Shown one piece after another: positions 2,577 through 9,890 of a stretch of 64,000 nucleotides of DNA. Position numbers and translations under genes: made by a program. The stretch covers positions 1,120,001 to 1,184,000 of the forward strand of contig CAVPLM010000005.1 of the NCBI GenBank assembly GCA_963706025.1, read 5' to 3'. The notes beneath the pieces are model-generated. The model was not told the origin of the DNA, ran no database searches, and was given only the letters and a program-made list of their open reading frames with translations. Position 1 is the first letter of the stretch. Each line of letters starts with the position of its first letter. This stretch comes from an uncultured Actinomycetes bacterium. GTDB lineage: Bacteria; Actinomycetota; Thermoleophilia; RBG-16-64-13.

Positions 2577-3212
2577 GTGACTGAACCGTCATATGTGGAT
2601 GGGACCATCAAGGCGTATCTGGACAGGCTCGCCAGCGCCGAGCCCGAGCCCGGCGGAGGAAGTGTGGCGGCGCTGGTCGCCGCGCTGGGCGCCGCTCTGG
2701 TGACCATGGTCACCGACCTCACTCTAGGCAAGGAGAAGTACGCCGATGTCCAGGAGGCGGTCGCCGAGATCAGGGCCGGCGCGGAGAAGCTGCGCGGCGA
2801 ACTGGAGGAACTGGTCACACTCGACGCAACCGCCTACAGGGCGGTGGCTGTGGCTATGAAGCTCCCCAAAGACACCGATTCCCAGAAAGCGGAGCGCGAC
2901 CGCGCTCTTCAGGCCGCCTTGGCAGGGGCCGCGGAGGTGCCGCTCAGAGTGGCCGAAGCGGCGGCTGAAGTGGCGCGCCTCTCGCTGCCGGCCGCCGAGA
3001 AGGGCAACGTCAACGCCGTTTCAGACGCCGGGGTGGCCGTGCTGCTGGCGGACGCAGCCGCCCAGTCGGCCGCTCTCAACGTGAAGATCAATCTGGCCTG
3101 GATAACAGACGAGGACTTCAAGCGCGAGGCTTGGGCCCGGGTGGGGGCGGCACTCGCGGAGACGGCCCGCCTGCGCGACGTCGTCCTGCCCATGACCTAC
3201 GGCAAGATCTAG
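2577..3212 (+). CDS. fchA: Methenyl-THF cyclohydrolase / cyclodeaminase-cyclohydrolase family (FTCD_C)
   Basis: YLDRLASAEPEPGGGSVAAL and GNVNAVSDAGVA motifs; AAGGAG RBS before GTG 2577; adjacent to folD. Confidence 0.85.
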   Translation: MTEPSYVDGTIKAYLDRLASAEPEPGGGSVAALVAALGAALVTMVTDLTLGKEKYADVQEAVAEIRAGAEKLRGELEELVTLDATAYRAVAVAMKLPKDTDSQKAERDRALQAALAGAAEVPLRVAEAAAEVARLSLPAAEKGNVNAVSDAGVAVLLADAAAQSAALNVKINLAWITDEDFKREAWARVGAALAETARLRDVVLPMTYGKI

Positions 3213-3266
3213 TCGGGATGCAGTCGGTCTGCGGTCGGTCGAAAAAGGTACCGGGGGGAGGCATCT

Positions 3267-4235
3267 ATGGCAGCAAAGATCATCGACGGGAAAGCTATCG
3301 CGGCCGAGTTGCGGGAGGAACTCGCCCTTGAATTGGAGGAGCTGAAGGCAGCCGGCCTGCAGCCGGGAATCGCCACCTTGATGGTCGGCGATGATTTCGG
3401 TGCGGGCATGTACCGGGGGGCAGTGGAGAAGTTCTGCGGCGAGATGGGCCTCGGCTATCGCAATGAGGCCCTCCCGACCGACGCCGGCGAAGACGCGGTC
3501 GTTGCGACCGTCCAGGACCTCAACAACGACCCCGCGGTTTCGGGCATCTTGCCGCTGCGGCCCTTCCCGGGCCATATCTCCGACTCCGCGGTAATCAACT
3601 CCATCAGCCCGGGCAAGGACGTGGATTGCTTCCATCCCTTCAACATGGGCCGCCTTACCTTGGGCGAGCCCACCTTCCCGCCTGCGACTCCGGCCGCCTG
3701 CATGGAGTTGCTCGAGCGCTACCTGAGCGGACAGGGACGTGAGGTGGTCGATGCCCTGGAAGGGGCTGAGGTCTGCGTCGTCGGTCACTCGAACACCGTC
3801 GGCAAACCACTGGCCCTACTGCTTCTCAACCGCAACGCCACGACCACGGTGACGCATGTGTTCACCTCGAACAGGGGCAACCTGGCGAAGCACACCCGGC
3901 CGGCCGACTACCTGGTCGTCGCGGCCGGGGTCCCGCACCTGATCGGGCCCGATCTGGTCGGCGAAGGCGCCGTGGTGCTCGATGTGGGGATCAACCGGGT
4001 AGTCGTCTGCCCGGCCTGCAAAACGATCAACCGGGGCAAGAAGAACCCTTGTCGCGCATGCGGAGGCGATCTGGCCGAAGCGGAGACCAAGACCGTGGGA
4101 GACGTAGATTATGACGCCGTCTCCGCCAAGGCCGCCGCCATCACGCCGGTACCTGGCGGCGTAGGAGCAGTAACCAACATGATGCTGGCCCGAAACACGC
4201 TCCGGGCGGCGCGGCTGCAGCGCGATAAGAAGTAG
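3267..4235 (+). CDS. folD: Methylene-THF dehydrogenase (FolD family) with a Cys4 insertion
   Basis: IIDGKAIA, KDVDCFHP, PATP, GHSNTVGKP, DVGINR, GDVD, ITPVPGGVG motifs. Confidence 0.92.
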   Translation: MAAKIIDGKAIAAELREELALELEELKAAGLQPGIATLMVGDDFGAGMYRGAVEKFCGEMGLGYRNEALPTDAGEDAVVATVQDLNNDPAVSGILPLRPFPGHISDSAVINSISPGKDVDCFHPFNMGRLTLGEPTFPPATPAACMELLERYLSGQGREVVDALEGAEVCVVGHSNTVGKPLALLLLNRNATTTVTHVFTSNRGNLAKHTRPADYLVVAAGVPHLIGPDLVGEGAVVLDVGINRVVVCPACKTINRGKKNPCRACGGDLAEAETKTVGDVDYDAVSAKAAAITPVPGGVGAVTNMMLARNTLRAARLQRDKK

Positions 4236-4341
4236 CGGCGCCTCCTCCAAACCGCAGAAGGTGGGCTTGCCAATTGAACGATAATCTGACATTGTGACCC
4301 GCAACTATCCGGGCAACGGACCCTTCGGTGAGGTAGATCCA

Positions 4342-7453: not shown

Positions 7454-8326
7454 GCCTCAAGTCGGAACTGGAATCAGGGAGATTCGCTATTACGGCTGAG
7501 ATCGGTCCCCTGAAGGGAACCGACATCACGGAGAACATCGAGGTGGCCGAGATGCTACGCGGGCGTGTGACCGCCGCCAACGTCACCGACCAGCAGAGCT
7601 CGGTGATGAGATTGGGGTCAATGGTCACCTGCCACCTGCTGTCTGATCACGGTCTCGAACCGGTCCTGCAGATGACCTGCCGCGATACCAACCGGATCGC
7701 CTTACAATCGGACCTTCTGGGTGCCTGGGTCATGGGCACCGAGAACGTCCTTGCTTTGACCGGCGACTTCCCTGCTCTCGGCGATCATCCCGACGCCGTG
7801 CCGGTCTACGATCTCGACTCGGTGCAGTTGCTGTCGGTGATCAGCCGGCTCAACGAGGGATTCGATATGGTCGGTAACCCACTGACCGGCAAGACCGATT
7901 TCTTTGCCGGCGCTGTGGTCGATCCGGGCGCCGACACCGAAGCCAGCCTTGACCTCCAACTGTTCAAGATGGAGAAGAAGATCGAGGCTGGAGCGAAGTT
8001 CTTCCAGACTCAGGCGGTGTTCGAGCCTGACAAGTTCGCCAAGTTCATGAAGCGGGTGAAGGGGTTCGGGGTTCCGGTCATGGCCGGCGTTATCCCCTTG
8101 AAATCGGTAGGTATGGCCCGATTCATGAACAAGAACGTGGCCGGCGTGTGCGTGCCCAAAGAGACGATCCAGAGGTGTGCCGCGGCCGAAGACAAGACTC
8201 AGGCGGGCTGTGGATCTCGTCGCTGAACTAATGAGAGACCTCAAGGATCTCTGTCAGGGTCTGCATGTGATGCCCATCGGCTGGGAGAAGAAGGTTCCCC
8301 AGATGCTGGATGCGGCCGGACTGTAG
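7450..8326 (+). CDS. metF: Methylene-THF reductase MetF (one frameshift near 8210)
   Basis: ITAEIGP, NVTD, LQMTCRDTNRIALQ, LALTGD, FFQTQAVF; the alternate frame continues ...GLHVMPIGWEKKVPQMLDAAGL*. Confidence 0.88.
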
Positions 8327-8486
8327 GGCTGTCGGCATCACCCCTGGGACGGCCGGTCGGGGACGTGTCGCGCCGTCCAGACCATGGAGGCCTTGAGCCG
8401 TCGTATCCGCTTCCTGCGAGACAGCTGCGTCCGCGACGGCGTAAGTGCTTGTCGATACTGGAGACGCTGACAGCGGGGGCGCAGAC

Positions 8487-9890
8487 ATGGAAGGGAACCA
8501 TACGAGGATAGCCATCCTGGGTTCCGGCCCGGGCGGCTACGTGGCCGCCCTGCGGGCGGCCCGTCACGGAGCGGCCGTCACCCTGGTCGAGAAGGACCTC
8601 ATCGGCGGCACCTGTCTCAACCGGGGCTGTATCCCCACCAAGGCCCTGCTGGCCAGCGCCGAGGCCTTGGCCCGGGCGCGCGCGGGCGAGGAGTACGGGT
8701 TCGAGGTCCCGGCGAGGTCGCCCCGACTTCCCCCGCATGATGGCCCGCAAAGAACGGGTCGTCACCCAGATCCGCGAGAACGTCGAGGTGCTCCTCAAGA
8801 AGGCGGGGGTGAAGGTGATCCGCGGCACCGGCCGGCTCGCCCCGGGCGGCGGGTCTCGTGGCCGGCGGGCGCCGGCGGCGGCCAGACCGTCACGGTGGAC
8901 GCGGACAAGATCATCATCGCCACGGGTTCGGAGCCCGCCTATCTGCCGATGTTCGACTTCGACCACCCGCCTATCTTGACCTCGACTTCAGCTTTAGAGT
9001 TGAGACGTCCCCGCGTCGCTTCTGATCGTGGGCGCAGGGGTCATCGGCTGCGAGTTCGCCTCGTTCTTCGCCGAGCTGGGCACCCAGATCACCATGGTGG
9101 AGATGATGCCGCAGATGCTCCCGCTCGAAGACACCCGCCTGGCCAAGCAGTTCCAGGGCGTCTATCGCAAGCGGGGCATCCAGGTACTGCTGAACACCAA
9201 GGTGGAGAGATCGCCGAGTACGCGGCCGACCACGTGGGGGCCAGCTCTCCGACGGGTCGGAGGTCACGGCCGAGAAGGTCCTGGTGTCGGTCGGCCGGAA
9301 GCCCAACAGCGCGGGCATCGGGTGGAGGCCGCCGGGGTCAGATCGACAGCCGCGGGCTACATCATGGTGAACGAGTACCTGGAGACCACCGCGCCCGGCA
9401 TCTACGCCATCGGCGATGTGAACGGGGGCATGATGCTGGCCCACGTGGCCTCTCACGAAGCCTTCGTGGCGGTGGACAACTGCCTCGGCGCGCAGCGCGA
9501 GAGCGCGATCTGCGCTCCACGCCCTCGTGCACCTACTCCGATCCCTGAGGTGGCGAGCGTGGGCCTGAACGAGGAGCAGGCCGCTAGCACGGCTATCAGC
9601 CGGTGACCGGCACCTATCGTTTCCCCGCCCTGGGCAAGGCCTGGCCATGGGCGAAGACGTCGGGTACGTGCAGCTGGTGGCCGACAAAGAGACCGACCTC
9701 CTGCTGGGCGCCAGCATGATGGGACCCCACGTCACCGACCTCATCCACGAGATGGCGGTGGCGGTCCAGAACGGGCTGACGCGTGAGGCAGTTGGGTGAT
9801 ACCATCCACGCTCATCCCACTATCGCCGAGGCGGTCATGGAAGCCGCACACGACGTGCACGGTGAGTCGGTGCACATAGCCAAGGTAGAA
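8487..9890 (+). CDS. lpdA: Dihydrolipoamide dehydrogenase (multiple frameshifts, end approximate)
   Basis: [42 protein letters not shown]...LAH and IHAHPT motifs spread over several frames. Confidence 0.85.

Follow-up and report, generated by a model that had tools for sequence, protein, structure and literature searches.

How the methylene-tetrahydrofolate (THF) reductase (MTHFR) is supplied with electrons, and whether energy is conserved at this very exergonic step, is a long-standing question in the bioenergetics of acetogens. PMC8515935 distinguishes several types of MTHFR: that of E. coli, MetFV, MetFV-RnfC2, MetFV-HdrABC-MvhD and NuoEFG-MetFV, the last as a proposal. There is no hydrogenase type among them. 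The ferredoxin-dependent, heterodimeric MetFV of C. ljungdahlii lies in the gene order fchA-folD-metV-metF-lpdA (PMC8515935). We have analysed a 64,000-nucleotide stretch of an uncultured actinomycete of the class Thermoleophilia (assembly GCA_963706025.1, contig CAVPLM010000005.1, positions 1,120,001 to 1,184,000, hereafter the window) in which the same flanking genes enclose a cassette of four genes, hydS-hydL-metV-metF, the first two coding for a [NiFe]-hydrogenase. We think it reasonably probable, from gene content and comparative genomics, that the cassette encodes one cytoplasmic enzyme of four subunits, namely a MetFV-type methylene-THF reductase coupled to a hydrogenase (an H2:methylene-THF oxidoreductase). 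An earlier note, made from the sequence alone, had pointed to this locus; what it said of the clostridial layout and of the described MetVF partners (RnfC2, HdrABC-MvhD, ferredoxin) agrees with PMC8515935, where the proposed NuoEFG is to be added. The note also knew of no such architecture in characterised organisms, and we found no description of a hydSL-metVF unit in the open full-text literature, subscription papers and supplements being outside our reach.

Pfam scans and direct reading of the sequence bear out the gene order fchA-folD-hydS-hydL-metV-metF-lpdA given in that note, as well as the junctions it described. The features of the locus are listed below; G003 and G007 are two relatives whose corresponding site is described further on, and loci (L), genomes (G) and contigs (C) are referred to by number where needed.

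2526..3212, + strand: fchA (methenyl-THF cyclohydrolase), PF04961 at E 3e-60; resident gene that flanks the cassette
3267..4235, + strand: folD, PF00763 and PF02882; resident gene, left border of the swapped segment
4238..8527, + strand: putative swapped-in hydS-hydL-metV-metF cassette with its flanking spacers, without nucleotide homology to G003 or G007 and of lower GC content
4342..5226, + strand: hydS, [NiFe]-hydrogenase small subunit, 294 amino acids (aa), PF01058 and PF14720
5226..6740, + strand: hydL, [NiFe]-hydrogenase large subunit, 504 aa, PF00374 at E 1e-164 over positions 1-508 of 508
6761..7453, + strand: metV, Fe-S subunit of a MetFV-type methylene-THF reductase, cassette type, PF12225
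7450..8326, + strand: metF (MTHFR), cassette type, PF02219 over positions 3-243 of 287
~8487..9890, + strand: lpdA (dihydrolipoamide dehydrogenase), resident gene on the right flank; matches the intact 473-aa ortholog of L030 in several frames

The true start of fchA may lie downstream of the GTG at 2526, and within the open reading frame (ORF) of hydS (4294-5226) the likeliest start is the ATG at 4342, preceded by GGTGAGG. The TAA of hydS (5224-5226) and the ATG of hydL (5226-5228) share one base, reading TAATG; between the TGA of hydL (6738-6740) and the ATG of metV (6761) there is a 20-nt spacer containing GAGGAG; and the stop of metV overlaps the start of metF as ATGA (7450-7453). To judge from these three junctions, hydS, hydL, metV and metF are translationally coupled. 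None of the intergenic gaps of the locus exceeds 106 nt, leaving no room for a further ORF. Mis-assembly of the cassette junctions was considered and is ruled out: short-read contigs of independent assemblies bridge folD-hydS, hydS-hydL, hydL-metV and metV-metF, and the same order is found in 80 other assemblies. Contigs 96-99% identical to the cassette are present in freshwater, freshwater-sediment and sediment metagenome runs from four studies (compared with window positions 2500-9900). Rfam models had no hit in 1800-10700 at an E-value of 1 or below, hence no riboswitch upstream. A promoter and terminator scan of the same segment returned no promoter-like and five terminator-like signals, against 4.3 expected, numbers that say little in a high-GC organism such as this.

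The hydrogenase has intact cofactor sites and no leader for export. HydS begins with MVKEIPLVWLPGAACTGC, and a twin-arginine translocation (Tat) leader is missing from all 73 aligned HydS sequences of the clade, which have a few residues at most before the first CxxC; as a control, the small subunits of ordinary [NiFeSe] hydrogenases in the relatives carry S/TRRDFLK leaders in 8 cases out of 8. At the other end HydS has a short, charged, acidic tail with no hydrophobic or transmembrane anchor. The earlier note was therefore right about both the missing leader and the missing cytochrome b or membrane anchor, the latter also in view of the short intergenic gaps. Because HydS has neither leader nor anchor, the enzyme presumably sits in the cytoplasm. 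When 1.8 billion cluster representatives were searched, the best full-length match to HydS (P0001, 58% identity) aligned from its residue 8, and the next full-length matches from residue ~34-74, so that these carry leaders. Eleven HydS residues are invariant in 73 of 73 sequences (C15, C18, C124, C162, H202, C205, C225, C231, C240, C259 and C262), and all the ligand sets are complete, with four Cys for the proximal cluster, three Cys for the medial one and a His plus three Cys for the distal one. HydL, the sole PF00374 match in the genome, has the RICGVC motif and ends exactly at DPCLACSIH, with no cleavable C-terminal extension. Such an extension, of 15 aa, is kept in 61 of 81 clade sequences and absent from 20, including all the actinomycete copies. 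A gene for a HycI-type protease is found in 13 loci with the extension (in 11 of them between hydL and metV) and in none of the 20 loci without it.

The best solved relatives of HydL are 1yrq and 1frf (E 4-6e-135), periplasmic [NiFe] enzymes of Desulfovibrio fructosovorans and of the D. gigas type, and that of HydS is 1cc1_S, the small subunit of a Desulfomicrobium [NiFeSe] hydrogenase (E 1e-74), while group 3 enzymes such as Mvh and Frh (5odc, 4ci0) match only the first ~120 residues of HydL, at E 1e-27 to 1e-31. HydSL shares two traits with group 1: the large subunit is of the NiFeSe_Hases family and has the N- and C-terminal CxxC nickel ligands, and the small subunit has the ligands of three clusters, with a His at the distal one. 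The group 1 traits it lacks are the Tat leader, the cytochrome, anchor or Fe-S partner and, in the window HydL, the C-terminal extension. The only genes that universally adjoin hydSL are metV and metF.

MetV and MetF form a pair of the MetFV type, a PF02219 MetF with a PF12225 MetV immediately upstream and overlapping it, and the genome has no MTHFR match other than this metF. Twelve Cys of MetV are invariant in 74 sequences. The window MetV is 81-91% identical to the cassette MetV of its relatives and 45% identical to the resident MetV of the same-genus G003; more generally, cassette MetV is 34-45% identical to the Hdr-linked or resident copies of the relatives. A profile search with MetV retrieved nothing among solved structures at an E-value of 0.01 or below. 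Its AlphaFold2 model was good (mean predicted confidence, pLDDT, of 86) but had no Foldseek match in the PDB at E 0.001 or better, only generic alpha/beta-domain similarity to ligand-binding domains of receptors, and neither search pointed to a docking partner. Neither hdrABC and mvhD nor any other Hdr, Rnf or Nuo module lies within the cassette; two FlpD/MvhD matches are located elsewhere in the genome, on contig C3. The four cassette genes have ratios of nonsynonymous to synonymous substitution (dN/dS) of 0.06-0.12 (0.057 for hydS, ~0.08 for hydL), as low as in the neighbour genes, which indicates strong purifying selection.

The linkage of these four genes reaches across several phyla. HydL was the sole query in a scan that took a single genome from each species, and we examined the best 80 of the 187 relatives it found (66-90% identity). 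In 79 of these 80 loci hydS, hydL and metV lie on one strand, with metF following where the contig continues, and the sole exception (L105) is a contig that stops just after hydL. By record title, 6 of the loci are from Actinomycetota, 64 from Chloroflexota (mostly Dehalococcoidia), 1 from Acidobacteriota and 9 from Syntrophaceae, Thermodesulfobacteriota or delta-/Proteobacteria. Closer to the window, 5 of 40 relatives carry a HydL 85-92% identical, and all five keep fchA/folD-hydS-hydL-metV-metF as far as their contigs reach. The synteny of hyd-metV-metF, on which the earlier note had made its reading depend, is consequently retained in five of five family relatives as well as in the 79 loci. 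The gap between hydL and metV has a median of 21 nt (76 loci). When neighbouring ORFs were clustered the four cassette genes were alone in being universal, the next commonest real neighbour occurring in 19 loci. On this evidence the linkage of hydSL with metVF is not a matter of local chance.

What surrounds the cassette elsewhere is also informative. In 12-13 Dehalococcoidia loci acsB, cdhD and a pterin-binding methyltransferase gene are found directly upstream, and in 13-19 Dehalococcoidales loci (L049, L050, L057 and L061 are examples) the same position, on the same strand, is taken by etfB, etfA (with a ferredoxin domain) and the gene of a 655-aa CCG/4Fe-4S, HdrD-like protein, which may together constitute an additional electron module. 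In 7 of the 9 Syntrophaceae-type loci, those for which the upstream flank was retrieved, folD precedes the cassette, and one Dehalococcoidales locus has folD upstream on the opposite strand. In most of these loci with an upstream folD the cassette is followed by the gene of a Cache-HAMP histidine kinase and by another reductase pair, metV'-metF'. ACS is present in five out of five other actinomycete carriers. Such neighbourhoods place the predicted hydSL-metVF unit in the Wood-Ljungdahl, or one-carbon (C1), pathway. Second copies of the reductase genes take two forms: L086, L087, L089, L091, L094 and L096 have the second pair, with metV' 38-40% and metF' 48-53% identical, and in L036, L037 and L041 a second metV (38-45% identical) stands in tandem between the metV and metF of the cassette. 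In 14 Dehalococcoidia loci with upstream acs genes the gene after metF encodes a DUF3786 protein of ~220 aa; the loci listed for it are L034, L037-L041, L045-L052, L058, L069 and L070.

The earlier note spoke of a hydrogenase inserted between folD and metVF. The position is correct. The event was not an insertion, since the whole hydSL-metVF block took the place of a metVF only about 45% identical. G003, of the window's own genus, and G007, of the genus of the carrier G024, have no hydrogenase at the syntenic site, where they read SBP...fchA-folD-metV*-metF*-lpdA-corrinoid protein (SBP, substrate-binding protein). Their flanking proteins are 76-95% identical to those of the window, MetV* and MetF* only 44-46%. 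At the nucleotide level, fchA is 78% identical to G003 and homology stops at 4237, the stop of folD (4231-4237 when both G003 and G007 are considered), to restart at 8528, at the start of lpdA, from where on the identity is 79%. The 4.3 kb between these breakpoints have no counterpart in G003 or G007, which hold there a 1.7-kb metV*-metF*, and the swapped segment has a GC content of 0.59-0.62 against 0.65-0.68 in the flanks. In a maximum-likelihood tree of MetF the seven Actinomycetota cassette copies form a clade (support 100/100) that nests within a cassette-only clade of 51 rows (99/99), whose other members are titled Dehalococcoidia or Chloroflexota and, in one case, Acidobacteriota; the resident MetF of G003 and G007 form a separate long branch. 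The row L043_linked of this tree is an upstream copy, 43% identical, the true linked metF being cut by the contig end. The nearest HydL outside Actinomycetota (77% identity) belong to the uncultured Dehalococcoidales L033-L035 and L037, and the MetF of L037 shares a sub-clade of 40 rows with the Actinomycetota. We see in hydSL-metVF a mobile four-gene module that, by all these signs, was acquired horizontally and swapped for the clostridial-type resident metVF. A replacement at a fixed position in the pathway speaks for the four genes together filling the role of the former two, and such in situ exchanges of metVF for hydSL-metVF provide natural comparisons that are nearly isogenic.

Conserved linkage and behaviour as a module are what supports, in outline, the H2:methylene-THF oxidoreductase that the earlier note had suggested, with its insertion recast as a replacement. 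The electron path, which we infer from subunit composition, would start at the [NiFe] site of HydL and run through the proximal 4Fe-4S, the medial 3Fe-4S and the His-ligated distal 4Fe-4S clusters of HydS to the Fe-S clusters of MetV, and from these to the flavin of MetF and on to methylene-THF, without passing through NAD(P)H, ferredoxin, Hdr, Rnf or a quinone. The enzyme would work in the direction of H2 uptake, making methyl-THF for the methyl branch of the Wood-Ljungdahl pathway. With standard potentials of -414 mV for H+/H2 and -200 mV for CH2-THF/CH3-THF (PMC9586279), a hand calculation gives ~-41 kJ/mol under standard conditions and ~-13 to -19 kJ/mol at 1-10 Pa H2. Uptake should accordingly be favourable even at the H2 levels of sediments, which are too low for the reduction of NAD+ or ferredoxin, and we regard it as a more likely physiological direction than H2 evolution. 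In subsurface organisms the use of trace H2 could plausibly be favoured by selection. Running in reverse, to give H2 from methyl groups, the reaction would come near equilibrium only at ~1 Pa H2 or below together with a high methyl-THF/methylene-THF ratio, and is conceivable in syntrophs.

Several observations weigh against a dedicated complex, in general or in this organism. A minority of the loci are looser, with a gap between hydL and metV of up to 877 nt or, in the 11 already mentioned, with the HycI gene in between, and three of them (L090, L093 and L100) pair the hydrogenase with a divergent type of MetVF. The purified MetFV of C. ljungdahlii uses free reduced ferredoxin, so that a bound donor is not obligatory (PMC8515935). 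In the window assembly metF is frameshifted, by a +1 shift near 8208 that moves the C-terminal ~40 residues to the next frame; however, the contigs of three of four sequencing runs are a base shorter at 8208, as is another contig from one of these runs at 8210, so this is probably an assembly error. A further point is that of the support genes. The metagenome-assembled genome (MAG) that contains the window (G000; 3.66 Mb in 30 contigs, 92% complete, 7% contamination) gave no match for HypA-F or HycI (PF01750), nor for ACS, FTHFS or RnfD. The same-genus G001 has a 29-kb island (C9:531013-560385, compared through loci L116 and L117) with hypE-hypD-hypF/C-hypB-hypA, a second, Mvh-like [NiFe] hydrogenase, hdrA-mvhD and ACS. 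Both flanks of this island are adjacent in G000 on the contiguous contig C10 (~78160-78242), which means that the island is absent at that site and not merely unassembled there. HypD, found in four of the five other carriers, is not found in the fifth, G002. HydL may therefore be impossible to mature in this organism, unless hyp genes lie in the unassembled part of its genome, and with neither hyp, ACS nor FTHFS in the MAG a function can be claimed with less confidence here than in the family at large. At C10:78453-95057, beside the deletion junction, there is a cluster of four matches to [FeFe]-hydrogenase large subunits.

It could be argued that the hydrogenase of this genome is a non-functional relic, or a mere Fe-S wire, and that the cassette is kept for the sake of its MetVF, the source of the only MTHFR. 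It would fit that the assembly lacks maturation genes and that, compared with G001, the island carrying hyp is cleanly deleted. Yet hydS and hydL are intact in an otherwise frameshift-rich assembly, their dN/dS against G001 and G002 (0.06-0.09) is no higher than that of the neighbours, which disfavours decay, and in a MAG that is 92% complete the hyp genes may simply not have been binned; we find this reading highly improbable, and it would leave that of the family as a whole unaffected. Even harder to credit is an H2-sensing regulatory hydrogenase of the HupUV/HoxBC kind controlling C1 genes. The missing Tat leader is in keeping with it, as is the missing extension in the 20 of 81 clade members concerned (and in these only), and in 12 loci the gene after metF encodes a Cache-HAMP histidine kinase. 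Nevertheless, the 15-aa extension is retained in the other 61, the protease is encoded in 13 loci, the sequences resemble the catalytic, periplasmic Desulfovibrio-type enzymes, there is no kinase between fchA and lpdA, nor in the window or in most of the loci, and the linked partner is an oxidoreductase that requires electrons.

A better case can be made for a functional pair that forms no complex, in which a soluble uptake HydSL passes electrons to a diffusible carrier, be it ferredoxin, flavodoxin or thioredoxin, for use by a ferredoxin-dependent MetVF of the C. ljungdahlii kind, and co-transcription serves co-regulation only. The MetFV of C. ljungdahlii on its own does accept any of these three in reduced form (PMC8515935), and some loci have inserted genes, long gaps or another MetVF type. 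But no carrier gene is conserved in the cassette, translational coupling is tight, exactly these four genes were transferred together, cassette MetV and MetF are a lineage of their own apart from the resident ones, and, going by standard potentials, the reduction of ferredoxin by H2 would be unfavourable at environmental H2. We take the pair to be unlikely. We are more doubtful still about the cassette as the core of a larger, lineage-specific bifurcating or confurcating complex, either reducing methylene-THF and ferredoxin together with electrons from H2 or having extra modules, EtfAB with the HdrD-like CCG protein in some Dehalococcoidales and LpdA in the actinomycetes. The genes for the former do precede the cassette in the 13-19 loci described above, lpdA follows metF in seven, one of them that of the window and the other six from relatives with Actinomycetota or Gaiellales in their titles, and other MetFV types have modules capable of bifurcation, HdrABC-MvhD and NuoEFG (PMC8515935, PMC5736913). 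Against this, none of the extra genes is universal, lpdA is resident and outside the swapped block, the LpdA of C. ljungdahlii did not couple to MetFV (PMC8515935) and the four core subunits include no HdrA-like flavoprotein. A last variant, which we put forward as very unlikely, would make HydSL-MetVF by itself a minimal electron-bifurcating hydrogenase, oxidising two H2 and bifurcating at the MetF flavin so that the reduction of methylene-THF (-200 mV) drives that of ferredoxin (~-450 to -500 mV). Were it true, the enzyme would recover the ~41 kJ/mol otherwise lost at the MTHFR step, offer Dehalococcoidia, actinomycetes and Syntrophaceae poor in Rnf and Ech a means of energy conservation in the Wood-Ljungdahl pathway, and be the long-sought "second acceptor" system of this step, in a four-subunit form spread by a mobile cassette.

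The remainder of the region shows a few further features. The lpdA gene has about ten frame switches, counted by eye in a three-frame translation; gapped tblastn alignments with an intact LpdA blurred them. Many frameshifts crowd lpdA and the methyltransferase genes that lie downstream of it (8200-12100), and none is seen in the lower-GC part of the cassette (4342-8200), a pattern that looks like the GC- or homopolymer-dependent indel error of a long-read assembly; the sites compared with other contigs are 8208 and 8358 only. Upstream of fchA, a Peripla_BP_6 substrate-binding protein that resembles a Tat-signal lipoprotein, with a long Thr/Ala-rich linker, is encoded at 438-1883 on the reverse strand and has orthologs in G001, G003 and G007. 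Past lpdA come a corrinoid-binding protein (9938-10549) and broken methyltransferase-like ORFs. Further on are genes for a pterin-binding methyltransferase (12552-13388) and for a pyridine-nucleotide-disulphide oxidoreductase (14295-15569), and at 16323-17723 one that codes for the C-terminal half of a molybdopterin oxidoreductase. As a whole, the stretch 9938-17723 looks like a gene cluster for methyl transfer and C1 reactions. FolD contains in its NAD(P)-binding domain, at residues ~247-267, a 21-residue CxxC...CxxC insert, zinc-ribbon-like, kept in 8 of 8 actinomycete relatives with or without the cassette and absent from the four Syntrophaceae-type FolD aligned.

Among hydrogenases, the closest described systems are the periplasmic group 1 [NiFe] and [NiFeSe] enzymes of Desulfovibrio and Desulfomicrobium (1yrq, 1frf, 1cc1, 4kl8), for which we assume the subgroup labels 1a and 1b. 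They share with HydSL the three-cluster small subunit, the His-ligated distal cluster and the DPCxxCxxH motif. HydSL differs in having no Tat leader and no cytochrome partner, and the window HydL also in having no extension. The active site of HydL has Cys in place of the Sec of the [NiFeSe] enzymes, and at the medial cluster HydS has Val at a position where Cys presumably makes the 4Fe-4S cluster of the NiFeSe enzyme. If our reading is correct, HydSL would represent a cytoplasmic branch of the Desulfovibrio-like [NiFe] hydrogenases, which are otherwise exported. In methanogens, FrhAGB and Mvh-Hdr are cytoplasmic [NiFe] hydrogenases wired through Fe-S clusters to a flavoprotein that reduces a cofactor or substrate of the C1 pathway. 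They offer an analogy for HydSL-MetVF, although they belong to group 3, are only distantly similar and have different acceptors.

Among MTHFR systems, MetFV-HdrABC-MvhD of Moorella thermoacetica, Sporomusa ovata and marine Chloroflexi likewise has MetV upstream of and overlapping MetF, an adjoining Fe-S module for electron input and a function within the methyl branch of the Wood-Ljungdahl pathway (PMC5736913, PMC7325909). The input module of the cassette is instead a complete [NiFe] HydSL, with no NADH-binding HdrA. In S. ovata H2 is also the ultimate donor for the MTHFR step, but by a membrane-bound route through Tat-exported cytochrome-b hydrogenases, quinone and MetVF-HdrABC-MvhD, with energy conservation at the membrane (PMC9430772), whereas the route proposed here would be direct and soluble. 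The C. ljungdahlii enzyme shares its flanking gene order with the window, G003 and G007 (PMC8515935); it has no bound input module, and in the window hydSL-metVF has replaced the metVF of that layout. The "X type" NuoEFG-MetFV proposed for Desulfobacterales and Chloroflexi is, like the present unit, uncharacterised and defined by a neighbouring input module, which is NuoEFG-like and not HydSL (PMC8515935). A hydrogenase-MetFV enzyme would add to these a further type of MTHFR that takes H2 directly. The cassette is widespread in uncultured lineages of sediments and the subsurface, especially Dehalococcoidia, and so bears on the question of CO2 fixation with trace H2 in these organisms; being compact and self-contained, with four genes only, it makes the hypothesis directly testable by heterologous expression. 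Among the systems described so far, hydSL-metVF is best filed as a further MetFV-type reductase, one with a cytoplasmic, Desulfovibrio-like [NiFe] hydrogenase as its putative electron module.

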